Source: Candidatus Hermodarchaeota archaeon
Lineage (GTDB): Archaea; Asgardarchaeota; Heimdallarchaeia; Hodarchaeales; Hodarchaeaceae
Assembly: GCA_048886185.1 (NCBI GenBank)
Contig: JBHLKY010000007.1
Coordinates: forward strand, 99,092-163,091
Direction: 5' to 3'
Length of the DNA stretch: 64,000 nt
The translations under genes were made by a program, and so were the position numbers. Below, piece after piece: positions 3,144 through 59,374 of this stretch (positions are counted from its first letter, which is position 1; each line of letters starts with the position of its first letter). The notes below the pieces were generated by a model that ran no database searches, was not told where the DNA came from, and worked only from the letters and a program-made list of their open reading frames with translations.

Positions 3144-3347
3144 CTTCTTTTTCTTCAAAATGCTTAAAACAATTTCACTAATTCGTATCTAAGCCGTAAC
3201 TAATATATAAAATATTGATTATTGAATTGAACCTCTAAAAAAATACAGAGAGGAGAGTCTAGAATTCAATTATTATCATTAAATCGAAATGGATTGATCC
3301 TATTAATTGTAATAAATACACTTTCAAGTTATAAACTGATTAAATTG

Positions 3348-3353
3348 AAGGAG
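3348..3353 (+). promoter_or_regulatory. Shine-Dalgarno site (AAGGAG) 9 nt upstream of the ATG at 3363
   Basis: The sequence aaggag followed by tttaaattt and ATG. It supports the internal ATG as the true start of the beta-helix protein. Confidence 0.6.
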
Positions 3354-3362
3354 TTTAAATTT

Positions 3363-4868
3363 ATGAAACATAGAAAAATTTTGATTTTGTTGGTTTTTAG
3401 TTTGTCTTTACTGAGTTTTGGTTACAGACAAAATATGGCTTCTATTGATTTTGAATCCAGGGAAAAAATTTCTTTAAACAAGAGCTTACAATATGTTTCA
3501 CAAAGTCCTATCTATATTTCACATAATGACAACTTCTCTACATACGCAATAAGTGGAGACGGGGGAAAGAATAATCCCTGGATGATAACAGGCTATAATA
3601 TTACAAGTAATACGAACATATTAATACATATACAAGATACGACCGATTATTTTGATATTTCAGGCAATCTTTTAGACGGAATAGATAGAACTTACGATGG
3701 TATTGCCCTCTCAAACGTTGTTAATGGATCTATCTCAAATAATACCATCAGAAATAGCTATTATGGCATTTTTCTTAACAACTCTGTCTATAACATTATT
3801 TCAAACAATTCAGTGTATTATAACCACGAAGACGGTTTATATCTACATGACTCCAGTAATAATGCCATTATTCATAATCTTATACATAATAATGGTCAGA
3901 ATCCAGGTGGTAGTGGTATCTTCCTTGATCCCTCAAATCATAATCTAATTATTAATAATACCATATTTAACAATAGCAAACATGGTATATTGCTTAATCG
4001 TTCTGATTATAATATAATATCTAGTAATAATGTATCTCATAACCATGAACATGGCATGTTTCTATATTATTCCAATTATAGTATTCTATCTTGGAATCAA
4101 GTCCATAGTAATGGTGAAAATCCTGGTGGTAGTGGTATTTTTCTTGATCCTTCAAATCACAATACTATTTTTAATAATGTCATATTTAACAACAATAAAA
4201 CTGGCATTACTCTTAATGCCTCCGAATACAATATAGTTTCAAGTAATAATGTGTCTTATAACCATGAGGATGGATTATTCCTAAAAGATTCCAGTTTCAA
4301 TGCCATATCAAACAATTTAATTCACAATAATGGTGTCAATCCTGGTGGTAGTGGTATTTTTCTTGATCCATCCCATTATAACACAATTGATCACAATTCC
4401 ATCTTTTCTAACGGTCTGGCTGGGGTAAACATTAGTACCAGCTCTGGAAGTAATCAGATAGTATTAAATAATTTTATTAACAATGGTCCTGGAGGCGGTG
4501 AATCTCAAGCCTATGATGATGGGCTAGACAATTCATTCCAGTTTAATTATTGGAATGATCATACTAATACTGACAACAATCAGGATGGCATAGCAGATAC
4601 AGCATATAACATAAATGGTACTGCAAACAACAAGGATGAATATCCAAAAGTCAATCAATTTGTACATCCTACTCCATCACCGTATTTCATAACCTATACA
4701 ACTACTGTGACAGTACCATTCGGTGAAACTGAAACATCAACAACAAAATCGACAGAAAGTGTATCAACAAGTTCTGAAGAACCTATCGAAGGATGGCCTT
4801 TAGCTCTAGTATTATTTTCAATAATAACACTACTTTTCCTTCGTAAATTTAAACAGAGAACTCATTGA
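3363..4868 (+). CDS. secreted/cell-surface protein with right-handed parallel beta-helix (PbH1/NosD-like) repeats, N-terminal signal peptide and C-terminal Thr/Ser-rich linker plus TM anchor
   Basis: The N-terminus MKHRKILILLVFSLSLLSFG is signal-like. There are many N-x-I-x-x-N/NNxG repeat turns and three near-identical NPGGSGIFLDPSNHN blocks. The C-terminus is a T/S-rich stretch, then GWPLALVLFSIITLLFL (TM), then RKFKQR (basic tail). Confidence 0.7.
   Translation: MKHRKILILLVFSLSLLSFGYRQNMASIDFESREKISLNKSLQYVSQSPIYISHNDNFSTYAISGDGGKNNPWMITGYNITSNTNILIHIQDTTDYFDISGNLLDGIDRTYDGIALSNVVNGSISNNTIRNSYYGIFLNNSVYNIISNNSVYYNHEDGLYLHDSSNNAIIHNLIHNNGQNPGGSGIFLDPSNHNLIINNTIFNNSKHGILLNRSDYNIISSNNVSHNHEHGMFLYYSNYSILSWNQVHSNGENPGGSGIFLDPSNHNTIFNNVIFNNNKTGITLNASEYNIVSSNNVSYNHEDGLFLKDSSFNAISNNLIHNNGVNPGGSGIFLDPSHYNTIDHNSIFSNGLAGVNISTSSGSNQIVLNNFINNGPGGGESQAYDDGLDNSFQFNYWNDHTNTDNNQDGIADTAYNINGTANNKDEYPKVNQFVHPTPSPYFITYTTTVTVPFGETETSTTKSTESVSTSSEEPIEGWPLALVLFSIITLLFLRKFKQRTH
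3741..4440 (+). repeat. in-frame tandem coding repeats, period 219 nt (73 aa), about 3.2 copies
   Basis: The anchor codons of NPGGSG occur at 3903, 4122 and 4341, an exact 219-nt spacing, with about 75-85% nt identity between units. Each unit spans about three PbH1 coils. Confidence 0.8.
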
Positions 4869-4955: not shown

Positions 4956-6827
4956 TTGCTTAATCGTTTTTTATCCCAATTAATCAGAGATAATAAAGAA
5001 CGAGAAACGACTAAAGTAAAAACTCTCAAGCAGATTGAACTGTTTATATTAAAAGATACACTCAAAGAGGCTCTACAAGAAGTTGACACTCTATTCTCCA
5101 ACGTTGAGTTAAATGAAGCAGATAAGTTGCAGATTCACATTCTCAAAAGTTTGATTCTCACTCAAATAGGAAACTTTGATACAAGTCTAGAGCTTGGTGA
5201 ACAAATATATTTAGAATGTCAACGATTGGAAAACCCCATATTAATTATTGATGCAATCATTTCACTTGCAAACACTAATTTTAGGCTTGATAAACTTGAT
5301 AAGTGTCTGGATCTAATTGACAACGGTGAAAAACTACTTAGTACTATTACCAAGGGAAATGAAGAAGAAATTATAGATAGAACTGTTGCATTAACATATC
5401 TAAAAGGGAAGGTTTTCTGGAAAAAAGGTGAACTTGATCAAGCTCTCAAGTTTATACAGGAAAGCTTTTCTTTTAAAGAAGAAAAGAGTACTTTATATGA
5501 AACTGCTGACTATCAAAACATCTTGGGGATACTTTTTGTGGGAAAGGGAGAGTTCAATAAGGCATTATATTATTTTCAAACCAGTCTTAAGATGTTCGAA
5601 GAACTCGGTATGAAATCCTCAATCGTTAAGTCCTATAATAATATAGGATTAATACTTTGGAAAAACGGTAACTTAAGGGAAGCTTTAGGTCATTATAAAA
5701 TGAGTCTATCCTTAAGTGAAGAACTCAAAAACAATCAGTTTATCGCAGTTACATCATTGAATATAGGTCTGATTTACTGGAATATGGGAGAATTAGATAA
5801 AGCTTTAAATTATTACCAGAAAAGTTTGGAAATAAGTGAAGAAATTAAAGATAAAGATTCCATGGCATCTTGTTTTAATAATATAGGAATTATATACCAA
5901 TTCAAGGGTGAATTGGATCAATCATTAGAATACTACCAGAAAAGCTTAGCTTTAAATGAAGAACTAGGCATAAAACCAGATATAGCCCTTTGTCTTAATA
6001 ATATTGGTGAAATATATCACATGAAAGGATCCTTTGAAGTTGCGAAAGAATACTTCACTAAGAGCTTGATTTTATTTGAGGAAGTTGGTGATAATTATAA
6101 TACAAGTTTAGCTCTTTATAATCTGGTTTTGGTTTCCATTGATAGTGGATTAACAAAGGATTCACAACTATATCTTCAGAAATTACAAGAGATTTACATT
6201 AAAGAGGATAAAAGGCATATTAGTCAAAAATTTCGTTTAGCCAAAGCAATCTTACTAAAAGAAAGTGAAAGGGTAATCAATATTGCTGAAGCTCAAAAAT
6301 TATTGTATGAAGTCGCTCAAGAAGAAATGATTAGTCTTGAAAATAACGTCACTGCAAATTTAAATCTCTGTGAGCTCCTTTTACAAGAATTACGAGCTAC
6401 TGGTAATGAGGAAATACTAATGGAATTGAAAGAGGTAGTATTTCGATTGGTAAGTGTTGCAGAAGGACAAAATTCGTACATCTGGCTTGCAAAGACCTAT
6501 TGGTTACAATCAAAAATAGCCTTACTAGAGTTTGATTTAGAACGATCACAAGAATTATTGACCCAAGCAGAATTAATCGCTAATGAGAAAGGACTAACAA
6601 AACTTCTAAACAAGATTTCAAGCGAACGTGATATTCTATTAAATCAATTTAACAAATGGGAACATGTTCTTGACCAAAAACCTTCTGTCAGCGAAATCAT
6701 TGAATTGACCCAAATTGAAGCAATGGTAGAGCGAATGATCCAGAAAAAATTAGACACTTCAGATGAAGAAGTAATGCAGTATGCGATTGAATCTCGACGT
6801 TTGGTTGACATGTGGGATAAGCATTAA
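4956..6827 (+). CDS. tetratricopeptide (TPR) repeat protein
   Basis: 623 aa. It contains at least six canonical 34-aa TPR units, for example YNNIGLILWKNGNLREALGHYKMSLSLSEEL and FNNIGIIYQFKGELDQSLEYYQKSLALNEEL. TTG start. Confidence 0.8.
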   Translation: MLNRFLSQLIRDNKERETTKVKTLKQIELFILKDTLKEALQEVDTLFSNVELNEADKLQIHILKSLILTQIGNFDTSLELGEQIYLECQRLENPILIIDAIISLANTNFRLDKLDKCLDLIDNGEKLLSTITKGNEEEIIDRTVALTYLKGKVFWKKGELDQALKFIQESFSFKEEKSTLYETADYQNILGILFVGKGEFNKALYYFQTSLKMFEELGMKSSIVKSYNNIGLILWKNGNLREALGHYKMSLSLSEELKNNQFIAVTSLNIGLIYWNMGELDKALNYYQKSLEISEEIKDKDSMASCFNNIGIIYQFKGELDQSLEYYQKSLALNEELGIKPDIALCLNNIGEIYHMKGSFEVAKEYFTKSLILFEEVGDNYNTSLALYNLVLVSIDSGLTKDSQLYLQKLQEIYIKEDKRHISQKFRLAKAILLKESERVINIAEAQKLLYEVAQEEMISLENNVTANLNLCELLLQELRATGNEEILMELKEVVFRLVSVAEGQNSYIWLAKTYWLQSKIALLEFDLERSQELLTQAELIANEKGLTKLLNKISSERDILLNQFNKWEHVLDQKPSVSEIIELTQIEAMVERMIQKKLDTSDEEVMQYAIESRRLVDMWDKH

Positions 6828-28022: not shown

Positions 28023-29465
28023 CTATTTTAAGTTATTAGCTGCAATTTTATCTAATTCATTTTTTAGGTTTTCATCAACAGCTTGTCTAGGTGGACGTTT
28101 GCTTAATTTAATAGCAATTTCTTTTGCTCTGTTACGAGCTGATGTTTCACCACCTTTCCTCCATTGATCACGGGTCTCTCTATTTATGATCTGTAAATTT
28201 TCAACTGTAAAAGGGAAATAAAGCTCTTTTCTGAATAAACTTAGCGTAGTTGGGTGAGATAGTAATGAAATATTAGCATCATAATCACTAAGAATATCTT
28301 GAGCAAATGGTACGCCATGATCTGTGATCCCTTGAAGAAGATGTTTAACCATTCCTGCGATTTCATTATCAATGATTAATTTCTCGAAGCTTTGAGTTGA
28401 TTCGAAATCCAGCATACCAGGCCCAGAAATCATATTGATTCCAGCGAGACCAGCTAGCAATGCCCCCATGCCTCCCTCAAATCCTGCTTGAGCATCAGGA
28501 ACTTTTGAGTCAGATAATGTCATATATGCATGTGTTGGTAGATTTAAGAACTTTCCCATTTGAGCATCTGCAATATTAATCATCATTGTCTCAATTGCCC
28601 CCATGGGGGTCGTTCCATTCCTCATATCAAATACTGCTGGAGATCCTCCCCATATAACAGGAGAATTTCTCTTGGCTAGTTGTGAAATTACAAGTCCTGC
28701 CAAAGATTCAGCGGTATGTTGAGTGACACAGCCAATTAAAGTTATAGGAGCTGTTGAACCTGCAAGAGGCATACTAATGAATTCTGATGGGATTCCGCTT
28801 CGTGCTGCGTCAATTACAGATTGAGTAGTTAGATTTGACCACATCAAGGGGGGACTTGGGCATGCATCAAAAATCGCCAAAGGTTTTTCAGCTAGTTTTT
28901 CCTTTGAAGTTCTTGTTGCCTCCAATAACTCTTGCATTATAGAAAAGCTTTCTATTCTAAAAGTGCCTGTAACAATCGGTTTGGAACAATTAATTAATGC
29001 GATGTACAAACGATGCCAATCTTGAGCATTATTAGGGACATCAGAACAAACAAGTGAGGTTGATTGAGCTGCAAAATTGGGTAGATGGTCCACAATTTTT
29101 GAAAACATTATGAAATCTGAAGATAATGCTTCTCGTATTGTCTTTGTTTCTAGATCTTGTACGAAAATTGCAGCAGATCCAGGATCAAAGTGAATATTAT
29201 CTTTTGAGAGCTGGATTACTTCTCTTCCTTCTCTATCATATAATTTGATTTCAGAGGGAGCGTTGGTGCGTAGCTTTTCAACTAGATCCTCTGGTATAAA
29301 GTACCTTAAATTTTTATAATGGATCCCTTCCTCCTGTAATAAGCTTTGAGCATCAGGATTTTCAATTATTACTCCTTGGTTGTGAAGAATAGCTTTAGCT
29401 TCATTGAATATCTTTTTCATGTATTCATTGGTCAATAATTCAGTTTTGGGTCTTAAAATTGTCAA
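28023..29465 (-). CDS. MttB-superfamily (trimethylamine methyltransferase-like) substrate:corrinoid methyltransferase, non-pyrrolysine type
   Basis: 480 aa. The N-terminus (YMKKIFNEAKAILHNQGVIIENPDAQSLL) and the overall length fit the MttB TIM-barrel. No in-frame TAG interrupts the frame. Confidence 0.75.
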   Translation of the reverse strand: MTILRPKTELLTNEYMKKIFNEAKAILHNQGVIIENPDAQSLLQEEGIHYKNLRYFIPEDLVEKLRTNAPSEIKLYDREGREVIQLSKDNIHFDPGSAAIFVQDLETKTIREALSSDFIMFSKIVDHLPNFAAQSTSLVCSDVPNNAQDWHRLYIALINCSKPIVTGTFRIESFSIMQELLEATRTSKEKLAEKPLAIFDACPSPPLMWSNLTTQSVIDAARSGIPSEFISMPLAGSTAPITLIGCVTQHTAESLAGLVISQLAKRNSPVIWGGSPAVFDMRNGTTPMGAIETMMINIADAQMGKFLNLPTHAYMTLSDSKVPDAQAGFEGGMGALLAGLAGINMISGPGMLDFESTQSFEKLIIDNEIAGMVKHLLQGITDHGVPFAQDILSDYDANISLLSHPTTLSLFRKELYFPFTVENLQIINRETRDQWRKGGETSARNRAKEIAIKLSKRPPRQAVDENLKNELDKIAANNLK

Positions 29466-29471
29466 AAACTA

Positions 29472-51419: not shown

Positions 51420-53435
51420 ATGTTAACAACTCACTCATTTAAGAACTACATCAATCAATTTTATTCAGAATTAGCCCTAATCAGTATAACATTTCTATTT
51501 TTCTTCGAATTAATATCGGATTTCGTAGAGGCAATTTATGCCCTCTGTCTTTTGACTCTATCCCTCAATGAGAACATTCTAAGCATTATTTTTCTCTTTT
51601 CTCCTATACTTCTAGTATTCTTAAGGAAAAACTTTTCAGATAAAATTCTCATTATTGTTGGGGAATTAATGGTTGTTTCTCGAATTCTTGAACCATTATT
51701 AAGCAATTACACACAAATTAGGATGATAGTTGCTGGTTTGGGCGTTGCTTGTTTTCTTATTTTTTTACCGTTATTTCTCTACCGAAAATATGGGTATGAA
51801 GAAGAGCAAAGTGCTATAACAATTGGATTAGGATTGAGTATTGGATTAGCATTATCAATTTTGTTTAGGACAATTGGTTCATCAATTGATATTTCCACTT
51901 ATAGCTGGTTTCAATCGATTGGTTGGATACTGGCAATAGTCGCAGGTATCATGTTTCTTGGCTTGGTAACAAGAGAGCAAAAGGTCGCTAACTCATTAAG
52001 TCTAGGAGACTCTATTAGTATTTGGAGAACAGTAGGGCTCACAATTGGCTTAATTGGAATTCTAATGATGATATATTATACTTTTGCTAGTCCTACTGTC
52101 GTTTCTAGGTGGACTGAAGGGAATTACTTTCTTATTGTCTTCTTAGCTATTATTATGCTTACTCTCTTTGTTGTTATTGTAATAATGAAGCGTGATTTAT
52201 TGAAGAGATTAGATCCTTGGATAATTTGGTTAGGGAATGCCCTTTTTGTTATATCATTAGTCTTAACAATCATGCTAAATCAAACAGATTTTTCAAGAAA
52301 TGCTTATCCAATTGATGCCCTTCCGACAACAATACTAAATCATATACCACTAATCTTGATGATATTTCTTTTCCCAATAATCTTAGTTGATTTTATGTTA
52401 ATCTCTCGTGAGGTAATAATTAACAAACCAACATTGGGGAAATTAGCTGTGGGTTTCGCTCTCGCATCGATGTTTTTCTTACTTATGATCTTTGCACATG
52501 TTTTTACGACAGTTTATGACTACATTGATGTTGTTGGCCCTTTTTTTCGTGACATGTTTTGGTTTGTGTATTTAATCGGGGGATTGAGTGTTGCCTTACC
52601 AGTATTTTTTGTGAGAAGGGGAGCTTTCATTTTCGATCCATTCGTTCTCGAATTCCGATCCAAGATAGTTGCTATAGTTATTATGACCATTACAATAGGA
52701 ACTATTTTTGCTGCGTTTCTAACCGCCCCCACGCCTCCTACTCTTGGAGAAACCCCCTCAATAACTGTTTTGACTTATAATATTCAACAAGGATATAGCG
52801 AAGATGGCATTAAAAATATTGATGGTCAATTACACGTAATTAAAGCAATTAATCCTGATATTATTGGATTACAGGAATGTGATACAGCTAGGATTGCTAA
52901 TGGAAACATGGATGTCGTTAGATATTTTGCTAATAATCTGAATATGTATTCTTATTATGGTCCGAAGACAGTTACGGGAACATTTGGGATTGCATTACTC
53001 TCAAAATATCCAATCATGAATCCTAATACTTTTTTCATGTCTAGTGAAGGTGAACAGGCAGCAACCATTACAGCACAAATCAAAGTGGGTACGATTCTTT
53101 TGAATGCATTTGTGACACATCTTGGTAATGGTGGCCCCCTTGTGCAACAAGAAGAAATACTTGATCGGATCGAAGGAAAAAACAATCTAATTCTGATAGG
53201 TGATTTTAATTTTAGACCAGGTACTATCCAGTATAATAAAACCATGAGTAATTTAAATGATTCATGGTTAATCTCACAGACTTCAAATCTAGAATATTTG
53301 GATGATATTGAATACAACATTAATCGAAGGATAGATCACATCTTTGTATCTTTCGGAGTAGCTGTTTCCGAATGTGAATATATTGTAAGTAAAGAATCAG
53401 ACCACCCAGCAGTTTGGGCTGAAATCATACTATAG
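51420..53435 (+). CDS. membrane-anchored endonuclease/exonuclease/phosphatase (EEP) family protein
   Basis: 671 aa. It has an about 440-aa polytopic N-terminal domain. The C-terminal EEP motifs are LTYNIQ, GLQECD, GDFNFRPG and SDHPAVWAEI. Confidence 0.7.
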   Translation: MLTTHSFKNYINQFYSELALISITFLFFFELISDFVEAIYALCLLTLSLNENILSIIFLFSPILLVFLRKNFSDKILIIVGELMVVSRILEPLLSNYTQIRMIVAGLGVACFLIFLPLFLYRKYGYEEEQSAITIGLGLSIGLALSILFRTIGSSIDISTYSWFQSIGWILAIVAGIMFLGLVTREQKVANSLSLGDSISIWRTVGLTIGLIGILMMIYYTFASPTVVSRWTEGNYFLIVFLAIIMLTLFVVIVIMKRDLLKRLDPWIIWLGNALFVISLVLTIMLNQTDFSRNAYPIDALPTTILNHIPLILMIFLFPIILVDFMLISREVIINKPTLGKLAVGFALASMFFLLMIFAHVFTTVYDYIDVVGPFFRDMFWFVYLIGGLSVALPVFFVRRGAFIFDPFVLEFRSKIVAIVIMTITIGTIFAAFLTAPTPPTLGETPSITVLTYNIQQGYSEDGIKNIDGQLHVIKAINPDIIGLQECDTARIANGNMDVVRYFANNLNMYSYYGPKTVTGTFGIALLSKYPIMNPNTFFMSSEGEQAATITAQIKVGTILLNAFVTHLGNGGPLVQQEEILDRIEGKNNLILIGDFNFRPGTIQYNKTMSNLNDSWLISQTSNLEYLDDIEYNINRRIDHIFVSFGVAVSECEYIVSKESDHPAVWAEIIL

Positions 53436-53505
53436 GAATAATCAAAGAGAATTAAAAGAAACAGAAACAAGATTTTGAATAATAATAACGAATGGAGACT
53501 CACTT

Positions 53506-54405
53506 TTGTCTTTGAGGACAAAATCAATGTCTGATTATGGTTGTCAGTCAATGATAGGAAAAATGAGAAGGGTGTTGATTAAAACTCCAAAAGATGCTTT
53601 TATTAGTCAAGATTACTTGTATAAAAACTGGAATGATTATAACTACTTATCCTGTCCCAGTTACGAGAAAGCATTAAAGGAATATGAAGCTTTTGAAGGA
53701 ATACTAAAGGAGTTTGTACCAGTGATAAACTATCTACCTTATGACCCAGAAGTTGGTTTGGATTCGATATTTACTCACGATCCAGTGAAGATCACAAAAA
53801 AGGGGGCGATCTTACTAAATATGGGTAAAAGAGGACGAATGAATGAGCCTTATGTAATAAATAAAATACTAGAAAAATTAGGCATTCCTATTCTTGGTTC
53901 AATAACAGGAAAAGGGACAGTTGAGGGGGGAGATTTATTGTGGTTAGACGAGAAAACACTAGCTATAGGGAGAGGATATCGGACGAATGATGAGGGTATC
54001 ATACAAATAAAAGAAATCACAGCAAATATTGTAGAGAAATATGTGATTGTGCCTTTACCCCATGGAGATGGTCCAGAAGCATGTCTTCATCTGATGTCCA
54101 TAATAAGTATGATTGCTGAAGACTTGGCAGTAATTTACTCTAAATTCATGCCTGTTCAATTTCGTGAATTATTGATTACATGGGGGATAAAATTACTCGA
54201 AGTTCCTGAAAAAGAATTTTACACATTAGGATCCAATGTACTAGCTATTGAACCTAGAAAGTGTATTATGGTTGCAGGTAATCATAAAACAAAGAAATTA
54301 CTCGAAAATGAGGGTGTTGATGTATTTGAGTATGAGGGAGAAGAAATATCACTCAAAGGTTCAGGGGGACCAACTTGTTTAACCTGCCCTATCGTTCGGA
54401 AGTGA
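53506..54405 (+). CDS. amidinotransferase-superfamily hydrolase (dimethylarginine dimethylaminohydrolase/arginine deiminase-like)
   Basis: 299 aa. GTVEGGD, RTNDEG and LHLM are present, and the C-terminal GSGGPTCLTCPIV carries the catalytic Cys. The arrangement is colinear with DDAH. Confidence 0.65.
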   Translation: MSLRTKSMSDYGCQSMIGKMRRVLIKTPKDAFISQDYLYKNWNDYNYLSCPSYEKALKEYEAFEGILKEFVPVINYLPYDPEVGLDSIFTHDPVKITKKGAILLNMGKRGRMNEPYVINKILEKLGIPILGSITGKGTVEGGDLLWLDEKTLAIGRGYRTNDEGIIQIKEITANIVEKYVIVPLPHGDGPEACLHLMSIISMIAEDLAVIYSKFMPVQFRELLITWGIKLLEVPEKEFYTLGSNVLAIEPRKCIMVAGNHKTKKLLENEGVDVFEYEGEEISLKGSGGPTCLTCPIVRK

Positions 54406-54556
54406 ATTAACCAAACTATTCAGAAAAATAGCTTTTTCAAATCTCATTAATCGTTTCTCATCTTCTTGTATTGTACATCATACTTTTCTTATATAAAGAA
54501 GAAAAAACCATAAAAGATTGAATTCAATTCTTCTGCAATAAACTTGGTAGATAAGC

Positions 54557-54967
54557 ATGAGTAAATGTATATTTTGTAAGATTGTCAGTGGTGTGGAACC
54601 TGGGATTTTTATTTATGAAGACAAAAAAACATTGGCAATTTTAGATATTTACCCAATATCTAGAGGGCATACACTTGTTATTCCTAAAAAACATTCACGA
54701 AATCTCTTTGACATTCAAGATGATGATGTCGCAGCGATTGGAATAACAATTAGGCGTGTAGCTAATGTATTGAAACAAGTTCTCCAATGTGATGGAATTA
54801 ATATTCTTCAGGGAAATGAAAGAGCTGCATTGCAAGAAATCTTTCACACACATTTTCATGTCTTACCACGGTGGTTTAATGATAAAATTATCTTTGGAGC
54901 ACAGCGAGAACGACTTAAGGAAGATCCTGTATTGATATCACAACTAAAACAGGGATTTTCTAAATAA
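54557..54967 (+). CDS. HIT (histidine triad) family nucleotide hydrolase/transferase
   Basis: 136 aa. It has the N-terminal CIFCKIV and the HTHFHVLPR (HxHxHxx) motif. Confidence 0.85.
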   Translation: MSKCIFCKIVSGVEPGIFIYEDKKTLAILDIYPISRGHTLVIPKKHSRNLFDIQDDDVAAIGITIRRVANVLKQVLQCDGINILQGNERAALQEIFHTHFHVLPRWFNDKIIFGAQRERLKEDPVLISQLKQGFSK

Positions 54968-56099
54968 TTTAAAGAGGTGTTTTCTTATCTCTGAATTTCA
55001 GAACACAATACTTCATGGAGATGCATTTAAACTCATTGATAAACTTCCAAATGACTCAATTGATACTGTAATCACAAGTCCCCCATATTGGCGGCAAGTA
55101 AGATACAGTGAATCTGATAATGAATTAGGCCAGGAAAGCTCTGCTCAAGAATACATAAATAAAATATGTCTTCTCTTCAATAAAATCAAACACAAGCTTA
55201 AGGATCATGGATCACTCTGGGTCAATGTGGCAGACAATTATATAAGCAATAAAACGAAAAATATCCATTCCCTGAGTCTAGCAGCAATCCCTGAGCTTTT
55301 TAAATCGACCATGATTTACACTTATTCTTGGATCTGTCGAAACGACATTATCTGGTATAAACCAAACGCTAGACCGAGTGGTGGAGTTTCAAGTCGGTTC
55401 GGAGTTGATTATGAGCACATTTTTTGGTTTGTGAAGAGTCCATATTATTATTTTGTTACTCAACGTCTTCCTCATGAATGGATTGAAAAAGATAATCTTT
55501 CTCTGATAGGAAAATCAAGTAAAGCTGATCTTCTCGAGCATAATGAAAAGAAAACTGTTGGGATGCATGAAGCATTAAGCTTACGGGGGAAACCACGGAC
55601 AAAAAGATATCATCCATTGGGGAAATTGATGCGTAGTGTGTGGCCCATTGAGATTGAAAATGGCGAACTACCATTTATTATCTATCCTACCATCTGGATG
55701 ATAAACACAACTGGATATTCAGGAAAACATTTTGCTCCTTTTCCCTCTCAACTTGTACATCGTGTTTTAACCACTACCTGCCCCAGAAGAGTATGCAATC
55801 TTTGTGGGAAACCTATATTCGATCCGTTAGTTAAGGCTTATTATCCTAAAACGACTAAGAGAATCCTTTGCACTTGTGGAACAGTTTTGGAGTCGGAAGA
55901 GTCGAACCCAGGTTGTGTTTATGATCCCCTTGCAGGAACTGGGACAGTAGCTAAAGCAGCTATTGAATGTGGTAGGAATTTTATTGTTAGTGAGATACTT
56001 CAAGATAACATTAAGCAAATTCATGACAGAATAAAGACCGCTGAATTTAAAGACTTCTATATAATGGAATTTTTAGATTATTCAGATAAATTGAAGTAG
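54948..56099 (+). CDS. DNA methyltransferase, beta-class N6_N4_Mtase (SPPY motif IV, probably N4-cytosine); initiation codon unresolved
   Basis: The frame is open from 54948 and encodes ...ILHGDAFKLIDKLPNDSIDTVITSPPYW...NDIIWYKPNA...VYDPLAGTGTVAKAAIECGRNFIVSE. The first ATG/GTG/TTG in frame is the GTG at 55227, which lies after the catalytic SPPY. The frame overlaps the HIT gene by 20 nt in the +1 frame. Confidence 0.7.
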   Translation, partial: NRDFLNNLKRCFLISEFQNTILHGDAFKLIDKLPNDSIDTVITSPPYWRQVRYSESDNELGQESSAQEYINKICLLFNKIKHKLKDHGSLWVNVADNYISNKTKNIHSLSLAAIPELFKSTMIYTYSWICRNDIIWYKPNARPSGGVSSRFGVDYEHIFWFVKSPYYYFVTQRLPHEWIEKDNLSLIGKSSKADLLEHNEKKTVGMHEALSLRGKPRTKRYHPLGKLMRSVWPIEIENGELPFIIYPTIWMINTTGYSGKHFAPFPSQLVHRVLTTTCPRRVCNLCGKPIFDPLVKAYYPKTTKRILCTCGTVLESEESNPGCVYDPLAGTGTVAKAAIECGRNFIVSEILQDNIKQIHDRIKTAEFKDFYIMEFLDYSDKLK

Positions 56100-56132
56100 A
56101 ATTAATTGTTATAACCTGCAAATAAAAATGAT

Positions 56133-56582
56133 ATGGTAAGAATTATGTCAACTCAAAAAGGAAAATTCACAATTGGGATCGGTGCCATAATTGAACATTC
56201 TCAAACAGGTAAAATTCTTCTTCTCCATAGAATATCTTCAATGGATTTTGCAGCAAATCAATGGGATGATGTTGGCGGCAGAATGAGGCAATTTGAAACT
56301 CCAGAGGAGACTTTACGAAGAGAAGTGAACGAGGAGACTGGAATAAGAAGTTTTGAAGTCGTAAAACCAATAGATGTGTCACATTACTTTCGTGGAGGGG
56401 AAACTGCTGATAACGAAATGATAGTCATAACTTTCTGGTGTAAAACATCATCTAATAAAATCATTCTCTCTCCTGAACATGATGACTATCGCTGGGTGCT
56501 CCCAGAAGAGGCATTGTTCTTGATTGATGATCCTCCTCTAAAGCGGAATATCCAGAGATTCATTGATGAAAAAAATGCATAA
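56133..56582 (+). CDS. NUDIX hydrolase
   Basis: 149 aa. It has the Nudix box GGRMRQFETPEETLRREVNEETGI (Gx5Ex7REUxEExGU). Confidence 0.8.
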   Translation: MVRIMSTQKGKFTIGIGAIIEHSQTGKILLLHRISSMDFAANQWDDVGGRMRQFETPEETLRREVNEETGIRSFEVVKPIDVSHYFRGGETADNEMIVITFWCKTSSNKIILSPEHDDYRWVLPEEALFLIDDPPLKRNIQRFIDEKNA

Positions 56583-56599
56583 AAATCAGCCTTTCATCT

Positions 56600-57577
56600 T
56601 CAGATCTGCGTGTTTTTCCATATTACTCTATAACCACCGATTAATAATCCTCCTATAATAAATAGTACAATTGTGGGAATAACTAATGCTCCAGCTAATC
56701 CCGTGAGATCAAGAACTATTCCTTCTGGTTTTGAGGAATAATAGAGAACGCTATTTTCCCCCGTTAACATGTACGAGAAGACTGAAAGGACAGTGAAAAA
56801 ATCAAGATACATTACTAGCTCAAAAGCTTCTGTTTGACCAATAAGGGATTGCACAATTATTGTACTAGATAGAAAAAACATGAATGATAATAAACCTGCA
56901 TACAATCTTCTTTGGGTCAGAGAAGAAAACACAAGTATAATGCTTGAGAGAACTATTGTTAAAATCTCAGTAAAAAAGACAACTCCACAAAGGACTGGAA
57001 AAGCTACAAGGATATCGACTGAACTTCCAATGCCTATAATCAATAAGACCCATTCAATGACACAAGGTAATGTATAGAAAAGATTACCGAAAATAAGAAG
57101 AGAACCATATTTTCCGAATAGATATTCATATCTACTTACTTTTGAATCATAAATCTCCGAAACCTTATATCGAAGATCATCCGATATTAGCCCAGCTCCC
57201 ATGATTACTACCCCAATCAACATCAAAATCGAGAATCCTGTGTCGAAAGTTGGATCTGTTTCGTCAGGAGCCGTTATCATTACTTGGAATCGGGCGAAAT
57301 TGCGAACTGTACTCCATAAGTGATCCTCTAAAATCTCATTGGACGTTTGTGTCTCTAGTTGAGTGTCTAATCCTACAAAAAGAAACATATTGGGAATGAT
57401 TAGTATAAAAAGAGTAACAATGATTAGTATCTTGATAATTCGTGAACGATGCCATTGATGGATCATATTAAACCATGAGATTGACCATATTCGCCATAGT
57501 CTTCCTCTATGTGTCCCCTCAAATGAACGAAATCCAAACCTTCTAACATATGCCTTTTCATTCACCTTAAACACCAT
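56600..57577 (-). CDS. hypothetical polytopic membrane protein
   Basis: 325 aa with about 7 TM helices. I recognise no family. Confidence 0.4.
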   Translation of the reverse strand: MVFKVNEKAYVRRFGFRSFEGTHRGRLWRIWSISWFNMIHQWHRSRIIKILIIVTLFILIIPNMFLFVGLDTQLETQTSNEILEDHLWSTVRNFARFQVMITAPDETDPTFDTGFSILMLIGVVIMGAGLISDDLRYKVSEIYDSKVSRYEYLFGKYGSLLIFGNLFYTLPCVIEWVLLIIGIGSSVDILVAFPVLCGVVFFTEILTIVLSSIILVFSSLTQRRLYAGLLSFMFFLSSTIIVQSLIGQTEAFELVMYLDFFTVLSVFSYMLTGENSVLYYSSKPEGIVLDLTGLAGALVIPTIVLFIIGGLLIGGYRVIWKNTQI

Positions 57578-57673
57578 AAAACATGAAAATAATAACTAGG
57601 ATTTATACACTTAACAAATTGGTCTCGTTCAAACTTTTTATTTTATCTACTTAATCTATTTAAAAAGATGTGA

Positions 57674-58264
57674 TTGGGGATGCATATGGTACAAGATCAA
57701 ACAATAATTGAAGAATGGACCGATATAGAGCCCCCAGTACCACCAGAACTTGAAGAAGTGACTGTTGATGTGGATTCAACAGCGCTACTTGTATTAGATT
57801 TTCAATATTTAAATTGCAATCAGGAAAGAAGGCCTAGATGTGTATCTAGTCTCCCTAAAGTACATAAATTGATCTCGAATGCAAGGGAGAAGGATTTGTT
57901 TATCGTTTATGCACTAATAAGGTCTTCAGCTGTTGAAGATATTCGTGAAGAAGTCAAACCACGAGGAGATGAACCAATAGTAAAAGCAGGGGTAGATAAA
58001 TTCTATAAAACTGACTTAGAAGAGATTTTGAAGACGAAAAATATCTCAAAAATCATTATTGTTGGAACATCTGCTCATGGTGCTGTATTACATACTGCTG
58101 TTGGGGCAGCACAGAGACAGCTAGAAGTAATCGTTCCAATTGATGGAATCTCTGCAAGTGAGGTCTACGCAGAACAATATACTATCTGGCATTTAGCGAA
58201 TTCTCCAGGAACCAGACGAAGTGTGACATTGACAAAGTGTGATATGATTAAATTCCCCTTGTGA
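57674..58264 (+). CDS. isochorismatase-family cysteine hydrolase
   Basis: 196 aa. It has the ALLVLDFQ (D) motif, the K, and IIVGTSAHGAVLHTA, the Cys-equivalent region. Confidence 0.65.
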   Translation: MGMHMVQDQTIIEEWTDIEPPVPPELEEVTVDVDSTALLVLDFQYLNCNQERRPRCVSSLPKVHKLISNAREKDLFIVYALIRSSAVEDIREEVKPRGDEPIVKAGVDKFYKTDLEEILKTKNISKIIIVGTSAHGAVLHTAVGAAQRQLEVIVPIDGISASEVYAEQYTIWHLANSPGTRRSVTLTKCDMIKFPL

Positions 58265-58273
58265 GATAAAACA

Positions 58274-59374
58274 ATGGAATTAAAACATCTCTTCAGTCCT
58301 CATAAAATAGGAAAAGTCCGAATAAATAATAGAATCATAAGATCAGCTACGGCAGAAAACATGGCAGAAAACGGGCACCCTAGTGATCAGCTCATTAATC
58401 TCTATACTGAGCTAGCAGAAGGGGGAGTTGGATTAATTATCACAGGAGGTATTGCAGTTGATCCTTCAAGCACTTTTTCAAAGAAAGGAACCAGTTTACA
58501 TAGTGATGAATTTATTTCCAGTCATCGGAATTTAGTTGATATTATTCATAATTTTGATACAAGAATTGCGGCTCAAATTGGTCACACAGGTCGTCAAAGT
58601 TCGAATCGAAGATATGAGGCGGTCGCACCGTCTTCGATACAATATCCTATAACCAAACGAGTTCCACGGGCACTAACAACTGAAGAAATCATTAATGTTA
58701 TCATACCCTCATTTGTTAATAGTGGTCGAAGAGCTTTTGAAAGTGGTTATGATATGGTACAATTACACGCTGCTCATGGATATTTATTGGGGAGTTTTCT
58801 GACACCTTATACTAATCGACGAGCAGACGAATTCGGAGGCAGCATCGCTAATCGTGCAAAAATCTTGGTAGATGTATATAATGGTCTCAGGGATGAAGTA
58901 GGGAAGGAGTTTCCAATTATTATTAAATTACAAACCCATGATGGGGATTTAGTTGGAGGATTACGCCTTGAAGAGGGATTAAAAATTGCTAAAATAATAT
59001 TAAAAACAGGATTTGACGCTATAGAACCTAGTGGGGGTGGTGGGGATCTTTTTGAAGCTGATAGGTGGTTTCCAAGTGTCCAAATTGAATCTCCTATAGA
59101 CGAAAACTATTTTCTACCAGTAGTGAAAGAAATTCGTACATTTAGCAATGATTGTACGCTTATTCTTATGGGCGGAATTAGAAATCCTTTACTAGCAGAA
59201 AGTTTCGTTCAAAAAGGGATAACGGATTTCATATCAATGAGTAGACCCTTAATTTGTGAACCAGATCTCGTCAATCGGTGGAAGAGTGGTGATCACTCCC
59301 CAGCTCTTTGCGAAAGTTGTAATTCTTGTTCTTTCTCTATAATCAATGGCCCCCTAGAATGTATTCTTAACTGA
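58274..59374 (+). CDS. Old Yellow Enzyme family NAD(P)H:flavin oxidoreductase
   Basis: 366 aa. It has the N-terminal LFSPHKIGKVRINNRIIRSA, HAAHGYLLGSFLTPYTNRRADEFGGS, and the C-terminal ISMSRPLICEPDL. Confidence 0.8.
   Translation: MELKHLFSPHKIGKVRINNRIIRSATAENMAENGHPSDQLINLYTELAEGGVGLIITGGIAVDPSSTFSKKGTSLHSDEFISSHRNLVDIIHNFDTRIAAQIGHTGRQSSNRRYEAVAPSSIQYPITKRVPRALTTEEIINVIIPSFVNSGRRAFESGYDMVQLHAAHGYLLGSFLTPYTNRRADEFGGSIANRAKILVDVYNGLRDEVGKEFPIIIKLQTHDGDLVGGLRLEEGLKIAKIILKTGFDAIEPSGGGGDLFEADRWFPSVQIESPIDENYFLPVVKEIRTFSNDCTLILMGGIRNPLLAESFVQKGITDFISMSRPLICEPDLVNRWKSGDHSPALCESCNSCSFSIINGPLECILN

Follow-up and report, generated by a model that had tools for sequence, protein, structure and literature searches.

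Several bacterial genes are known to begin at near-cognate codons of the AU-N type. The AUU or AUA start of infC serves the autoregulation of initiation factor IF3, and E. coli pcnB starts at AUU. In the published record, infC starts at ATT or ATA, and in Deinococcus the start of dnaA was placed at ATC by N-terminal proteomics (PMC2830850). In the archaeon Sulfolobus, the eIF1 homologue aIF1 discriminates against AUU on mRNAs led by a Shine-Dalgarno (SD) site (PMC4705826, PMC6237735). Here, we describe a gene for a predicted beta-class N6/N4 DNA methyltransferase that probably begins at an AUC codon in an Asgard archaeon. It lies in a 64,000-nucleotide stretch of DNA (the window) from Candidatus Hermodarchaeota archaeon (GenBank assembly GCA_048886185.1, contig JBHLKY010000007.1, positions 99,092 to 163,091 of the forward strand).

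The gene resembles infC, pcnB and dnaA in having a near-cognate AU-N codon that is conserved across relatives, preceded by an SD site and presumed to limit or regulate expression, and in that misassigned, heterogeneous N-termini turn uniform once this codon is taken as the start. It differs from all three in its archaeal host, which has eukaryote-type initiation factors (aIF1, aIF1A and aIF2), and from infC and dnaA in that it encodes a DNA methyltransferase rather than a translation or replication factor, with no autoregulatory logic evident. There is a further likeness to near-cognate initiation under the control of eIF1 or aIF1, in that use of the AUC would scale with initiation stringency, conceivably through aIF1; unlike eukaryotic near-cognate starts, however, it would be placed by an SD site and not by scanning and Kozak context. 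Conserved AU-N starts are thus already established in bacteria, and the present comparison points to one in an Asgard archaeon. As a near-cognate start conserved in 16 Asgard lineages, it would offer a natural test case for aIF1-type proofreading on SD-leadered mRNAs.

An open frame with no canonical start ahead of its catalytic motif

The methyltransferase gene sits between genes for a HIT-family hydrolase and a Nudix hydrolase, all three on the forward strand and closely packed in the window (Table 1). From the point where its frame opens, 279 nt pass before the first ATG, GTG or TTG, which is a GTG at 55227. No other frame among the 52 long open frames in the window has its first canonical start more than 63 nt in, so that the missing start is a real anomaly, unusual within the window. 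An earlier note on this DNA had remarked that no canonical start precedes motif IV, which we confirmed, and had left the choice between non-canonical initiation, a +1 frameshift or fusion with HIT, and inactivation of the gene. Its coordinates for HIT, the methyltransferase frame and Nudix also held, with TSPPYW placed at 55074.

A Shine-Dalgarno site and an AT-N codon conserved among orthologues

We compared 16 distinct orthologous loci (the window and 15 others) with their flanks, taken from Asgard genomes and metagenomes, anchoring each locus 29 codons 5' of TSPPYW and aligning the DNA separately as well. These 16 orthologues share 73-87% nucleotide identity, and the methyltransferase frame is unbroken for 370 codons in every one. 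A protein search returned 14 orthologues at 76-82% protein identity from Asgard metagenome-assembled genomes (MAGs) and metagenomes, the MAGs being named Heimdall-, Hod- or Thorarchaeota by their submitters.

All 16 loci share one layout. A GAGGTG motif, of which at least GGT is present, is separated by 6-7 nt from an in-frame AT-N codon, and conserved coding sequence follows. Within GAGGTG, the GGT never varies and the other positions hardly do. Seven lineages have ATC as the AT-N codon (the window, L001, L002, L004, L005, L009 and L034), and it is ATT in another seven (the L003 group, L028, L035, L036, L037, L038 and L040), ATA in L041 and ATG in L006, where it is homologous if the one-codon difference from L041 falls after the ATG. 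From this codon onwards the protein is conserved, S-[EK]-[FVI]-x-[ND]-Q-[IV]-L-H-G-D, with synonymous changes in the DNA. Between the opening of the frame and AT-N, seven of the 16 lineages have no ATG, GTG or TTG at all (the window, L001, L002, the L003 group, L034, L040 and L041). The remaining nine do have canonical codons, scattered from -3 to -15 nt and for the most part within the SD site, and it is these that gene finders chose. The option of non-canonical initiation is therefore the one that the orthologues bear out, with an SD site, a spacer of 6-7 nt and ATC, ATT or ATA in 15 of the 16 lineages, and ATG in the sixteenth.

The alignment identifies GAGGTG as an SD site and not as coding sequence, because its reading frame varies among lineages, differing between those with a spacing of 6 and those with a spacing of 7, and because in L038 the motif reads AGG TGA, with an in-frame stop inside it. 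Further stops crowd the same region: TAG lies directly 5' of GAGGTG in L003 and L040, and TAA one codon 5' of it in L034. A natural strong-SD mRNA of P. abyssi has a comparable arrangement, with GGAGGUG, 6 nt and AUG (PMC6237735), and in the window GGTG precedes the canonical starts of other genes by 5-9 nt. There, the ATC at 54987 is the only conserved near-cognate codon at a spacing compatible with the SD site (7 nt). ATC also makes up 7 of the 15 isoleucine-type codons at the start site, against 17-19% of isoleucine codons elsewhere.

Probable initiation at AUC 54987

Since the SD site and its spacing to AT-N are conserved, and since coding conservation begins at that codon in all 16 lineages, the start is most likely ATC 54987. 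The gene is then probably an intact, vertically inherited, stand-alone methyltransferase gene, translated from a near-cognate AUC into a protein of 370 residues. In the mechanism that we propose, GAGGUG would position the small ribosomal subunit at the AUC 7 nt downstream, where the initiator Met-tRNA would pair with a mismatch at the third position and methionine would presumably be inserted. The product would begin (M)SEFQNTILHGD, with (M)SEFQNTILHGDAFK as its predicted N-terminal peptide. As the HIT stop lies 19 nt before the AUC, ribosomes finishing HIT may feed in too. Such a weak start codon would likely keep expression of the methyltransferase low, and because aIF1 discriminates against AUU in Sulfolobus, output from the AUC might be sensitive to aIF1 and depend on the stringency of initiation.

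Several points weigh against this interpretation. A canonical codon lies within 15 nt upstream in nine of the 16 lineages and is possibly used there, and the isoleucine may be no more than a conserved residue at position two or three. Archaeal reviews give only AUG, GUG and UUG as starts (PMC7531240), and initiation at AUC should be inefficient given the discrimination of Sulfolobus aIF1 against AUU, observed in vitro on SD-leadered mRNA (PMC4705826). Pairing of GAGGTG with an anti-SD at the 3' end of the organism's 16S rRNA is presumed here; as background, a review notes that SD sites are not widespread in the first Asgard genome (PMC7531240). The pattern AGGTG-N7-ATH is also not rare: it was found 6 times in the window against 6.5 expected, and is no evidence by itself. 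The case for an AUC start in this Asgard gene is one made by comparing sequences. Neither this methylase nor the use of AU-N starts by Asgard archaea turned up in the literature, although coverage was limited and this is weak evidence.

Nor does AT-N initiation seem to be a general habit of the genome: among 72 open frames this was the only clear case, with a few ambiguous ones, so that genome-wide use of such starts is not evident. One of the other frames, of 545 codons, lies at 3231-4868 of the forward strand and has an in-frame ATT at 3264, with a GGAG that ends 8 nt upstream; the first canonical start, TTG 3294, follows 30 nt after this ATT, leaving the start ambiguous. An occluding or regulatory RNA hairpin at the methyltransferase start was considered and dropped, as the folding energy of the RNA around the start was no better than that of shuffled sequence (z +0.69).

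A bolder reading, which we regard as doubtful, takes the AU-N start to be a selected regulatory device of Asgard archaea, in which aIF1 stringency and coupling to HIT set the output of an orphan methylase across the clade. Extended more boldly still, it would have HIT and Nudix work together with the methylase, all three acting on a common substrate, either a nucleotide or a nucleic acid.

Two relatives and one distant homologue deserve mention in their own right. In L006 (3998-4018), which alone among the orthologues has ATG as its start codon, the SD site is degraded (GAGGTTGTG). Its closest relative, L041 (86% nucleotide identity), has GGCGGTG, 7 nt and then ATA at 1606-1623. The pair may reflect a trade-off of SD strength against start-codon strength, seen in one pair only. 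A homologue of 27% identity in a Clostridium sp. MAG (L008, contig NZ_DATCQT010000082.1, about 3900-4010) has no ATG, GTG or TTG at the expected N-terminus either: its frame opens 35 codons before TSPPYW, its upstream in-frame sequence begins INIYNINDI, and its sole canonical start, an ATG, precedes the motif by 4 codons.

Alternative explanations for the missing start

Initiation might instead be independent of AT-N, with ribosomes reinitiating after termination at HIT, or starting at lineage-specific upstream codons such as a GTG within the SD site, TTG, AAG or AGG. Among the 14 lineages with HIT, 10 indeed have its stop 12-30 nt upstream; in nine lineages a canonical codon of some kind lies no more than 15 nt upstream, and the window itself has the near-cognate codons AAG 54972 and AGG 54975. 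However, the SD-7-ATT arrangement is retained both by four lineages whose gaps measure 58-163 nt and by L040, where HIT is absent. The upstream canonical codons are not conserved in position, fall mostly within the SD site and have no SD site of their own, and the AAG and AGG codons are likewise not conserved. We therefore consider this account rather unlikely. Termination-reinitiation is at the same time compatible with an AUC start and is mainly a modifier of the preferred explanation, initiation at AUC 54987: over a short gap, such as the 19 nt of the window, it may play a part, but it cannot be the general mechanism.

A second account holds that the gene is a pseudogene, that its start contains an assembly or sequencing error, or that only a truncated product is made, from GTG 55227 or from an ATC at 55071. 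The lack of a canonical start ahead of motif IV would be explained in this way, and public models of the gene and of several orthologues are truncated (P0001 and P0011-P0015). Against this, the same state is found in seven independent lineages, and an independent contig at the National Center for Biotechnology Information (NCBI; L042) matches the window at 100% identity across 7029 nt. The frame is intact in all 16 lineages and under strong purifying selection. The ratio of non-synonymous to synonymous change (pN/pS) is 0.18 over the gene as a whole and 0.33 within codons 2-29, which refutes the earlier suggestion of gene inactivation.

The N-terminal residues also appear to be part of the fold. 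In an AlphaFold 2 (AF2) model built on 79 diverse homologues, with a predicted local distance difference test (pLDDT) score of 82.5 and a predicted template modelling (pTM) score of 0.84, residues 1-30 have pLDDT values of 92-98 and comprise a strand (7-10), a helix (13-17) and a second strand (25-30) that runs into SPPY. A profile alignment places residue 9 on residue 24 of the solved structure 2zie and continues through the strand that leads into SPPY, and distant family members have ATG 26-33 codons before SPPY, compared with the 29 codons here. The model thus indicates that the 29 N-terminal residues are needed for the fold. Since these residues are conserved and structurally integral, products from either downstream codon would be defective. 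A start at GTG 55227 was rejected, as it gives a product without motif IV, and one at ATC 55071 was rejected, as its product would lack the strand and helix that precede the motif. Taken together, these data make inactivation, error or truncation very improbable.

Hardly credible, finally, is a programmed +1 frameshift at the end of HIT (AAA-TAA-T) that would yield a HIT-methyltransferase fusion with no need of its own start: the window frame is +1 relative to HIT with a 20-nt overlap, and the presence of an SD-like element close to a stop codon is reminiscent of prfB, although at the prfB frameshift site that element is upstream of the stop codon and here it is downstream, but this option of the earlier note is refuted by the offset from HIT to the methyltransferase, which is 0 in L003, L006, L034, L038 and L041, 1 in the window, L004, L005, L028, L035 and L036, and 2 in L001, L002 and L037, by a gap that varies from 12 to 163 nt among lineages, by in-frame stops that in most lineages separate HIT from the conserved N-terminus, by the residues from the HIT stop to ATC, which are not conserved as protein, and by L040, which has no HIT and still reads GAGGTG-7-ATT.

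Gene models of the orthologues

The start codon bears directly on annotation, where gene finders misplace the start of the methyltransferase. NCBI holds the same gene as 'DNA-methyltransferase [Promethearchaeota archaeon]', a protein of 342 residues beginning MTSPPYW (P0001). Its start is ATC 55071 (L042 position 3001), 28 codons 3' of the conserved ATC, so that the NCBI pipeline itself took an ATC start. Five of the 14 orthologue models (P0011-P0015) are cut off at or past the catalytic motif and the starts of the others are heterogeneous; several of the remaining nine probably begin at an upstream TTG or GTG that is unlikely to be the true start, and one (P0002, from L002) is annotated from the AT-N codon itself. 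An AT-N start would make the methyltransferase family uniform, at about 370-385 residues.

Organisation of the locus

The coordinates of the features are collected in Table 1. The earlier note had the methyltransferase overlapping HIT. This holds for the open frame, which shares 20 nt with HIT, but not for the coding sequence (CDS), which has no HIT overlap when it starts at 54987. The Nudix ATG lies 34 nt past the final base of the methyltransferase stop; NCBI places the Nudix start at ATG 56145, giving 145 residues.

Table 1. Features of the methyltransferase locus (positions in the window).
Feature	Position	Strand	Details
HIT-family (Hint-like) hydrolase gene	54557..54967	+	136 aa; Pfam HIT 8.9e-24
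Histidine triad HTHFHVL of the HIT gene	54845-54865	+	motif location
HIT stop codon TAA	54965-54967	+	
Methyltransferase open frame	opens 54948	+	behind TAA 54945-54947
Putative Shine-Dalgarno site GAGGTG	54974..54979	+	6 nt past the HIT stop, 7 nt ahead of ATC
Inferred initiation codon ATC (AUC), near-cognate to AUG	54987..54989	+	orthologue comparison
Predicted beta-class N6/N4 DNA methyltransferase CDS	54987..56099	+	370 aa plus stop; Pfam PF01555 7.9e-30
Methyltransferase stop codon TAG	56097-56099	+	
Catalytic motif IV TSPPYW, residues 30-35	55074..55091	+	motif location
First canonical in-frame codon GTG	55227..55229	+	80 codons into the conserved domain, 3' of motif IV
Cys cluster CPRRVCNLC...CTC, residues 265-297	55779..55877	+	orthologue alignment
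S-adenosylmethionine (AdoMet)-binding motif I DPLAGTGT, residues 313-320	55923..55946	+	motif location
Nudix hydrolase gene	56133..56582	+	149 aa from ATG 56133; Pfam NUDIX 2.9e-19
Nudix box, complete	56277-56345	+	motif location

A vertically inherited orphan methyltransferase

The predicted protein matches PF01555 with 104.9 bits against a curated cut-off of 26.7. Motif IV lies N-terminal to motif I, which is the beta-class order; both motifs are conserved in homologues, and the S, P, P and Y of motif IV are invariant among the 79 homologues. The top Foldseek matches of the model were CcrM, M.BceJIV, the rotifer enzyme N4CMT, M.MboIIA, TTHA0409 and M.PvuII (E 1e-16 to 1e-12, with 1.5e-16 for CcrM and 6.6e-15 for N4CMT). 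Motifs and modelled fold together assign it to the beta class of N6/N4 DNA methyltransferases. It shares the Pfam domain, the N-terminal SPPY-type motif IV, the C-terminal motif I and the fold with the solved enzymes TTHA0409 (2zie), CcrM (6pbd), M.BceJIV (8urk), N4CMT (8s9m), M.MboIIA (1g60), M.PvuII (1boo) and M.RsrI (1eg2), yet is only 13-20% identical to any of them.

What sets it apart from these enzymes are a low-confidence insertion between motifs IV and I (residues 167-234 of the AF2 model) and an invariant cluster of cysteines just before motif I. The cysteines are invariant in a 15-sequence orthologue alignment and the region has pLDDT values of 90-97. The cluster is conserved among the Asgard orthologues but is not part of the columns that the wider family shares, and it probably represents an insertion that binds zinc.

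The SPPY motif suggests that the enzyme probably modifies cytosine at N4 (m4C): SPPY or SPPF is common to it, to the N4-cytosine enzymes M.PvuII and N4CMT, and to TTHA0409. Structural neighbours of N6-adenine (m6A) and m4C specificity score alike. No nuclease was found among the genes characterised around the methyltransferase (51420-59374), nor was one called in any orthologous locus. A Type II restriction-modification system was accordingly rejected, there being no cognate endonuclease gene beside the methyltransferase, and we regard the enzyme as an orphan methylase because no nuclease gene lies nearby. In this it is like CcrM, having no partner nuclease and being inherited vertically with its neighbourhood, unlike a mobile restriction-modification gene. 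Vertical inheritance of an orphan SPPY methyltransferase predicts a methylation motif throughout the clade, probably m4C.

The HIT-methyltransferase-Nudix neighbourhood

The earlier note had also considered it plausible that HIT, the methyltransferase and Nudix make up a defence or epigenetic module at the nucleotide level. The three genes do share a strand and are tightly spaced in the window, HIT lies 5' of the methyltransferase in 14 of the 16 lineages (13 of the 15 besides the window), and models for HIT-family (ThsC) and Nudix-like (PDC-S07) proteins exist in PADLOC. When the trio was compared in relatives, however, Nudix proved inconsistent. It adjoins the methyltransferase in the window, L001, L003/L030 and L036; lies about 1 kb away in L002, L004, L005 and L034, the intervening gene in L034 being a Lactamase_B gene on the minus strand (5030-5953); and is not found beside the methyltransferase in at least three, L028, L037 and L038, where other genes follow directly. 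HIT was not detected in L009 and L040.

Every flanking gene is moreover syntenic: those for an EEP phosphatase, a DnaJ-like protein, a membrane protein, an isochorismatase and an OYE protein are conserved at 62-84% identity, like the trio itself, and the neighbours in the window also include an ADI/DDAH-family protein. With conservation equal across the neighbourhood, adjacency adds no signal of its own. By tblastn, neither HIT nor Nudix was found next to the methyltransferase in any of 19 more distant homologues. PADLOC gave only generic domain matches (MTase_II, ThsC at 2.4e-19 and PDC-S07 at 1.1e-14), with neither the partner genes of the ThsC and PDC-S07 systems nor any system-specific gene set, an NCBIfam scan gave generic names only, and no nuclease or other effector was seen. 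A dedicated module is therefore improbable, and the trio is best read, on its distribution across these loci, as the general synteny of one clade. As the idea of a defence module is unsupported, the cluster should not count as a new defence system.

On the 2-kb metagenome contig of L009, where tblastn detected no HIT, only the last 10 or so HIT codons (SKLKQGFLQ*) precede the methyltransferase at 560-620, which reflects either a rearrangement or a chimeric assembly.

Elsewhere in the window, the Rfam model PYLIS_3 (mttB) matches positions 28418-28517 of the minus strand with 51.3 bits (gathering score 38). The match falls inside an open reading frame at 28029-29468 (minus strand; Pfam MTTB 9.9e-73). 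This frame is free of in-frame stops and looks like a non-Pyl MttB homologue, and the match probably reflects coding-sequence similarity and not a functional PYLIS (pyrrolysine insertion sequence) element. Readthrough of UAG as pyrrolysine is irrelevant to the methyltransferase, with the match in a stop-free frame of the MttB family and TAA as the HIT stop.

HIT is probably the first gene of the transcription unit. A TATA-like element, TTATATAA, was spotted by eye at 54488-54495, about 62 nt 5' of the HIT ATG, and is a possible archaeal promoter for a transcript that covers HIT, the methyltransferase and perhaps Nudix.

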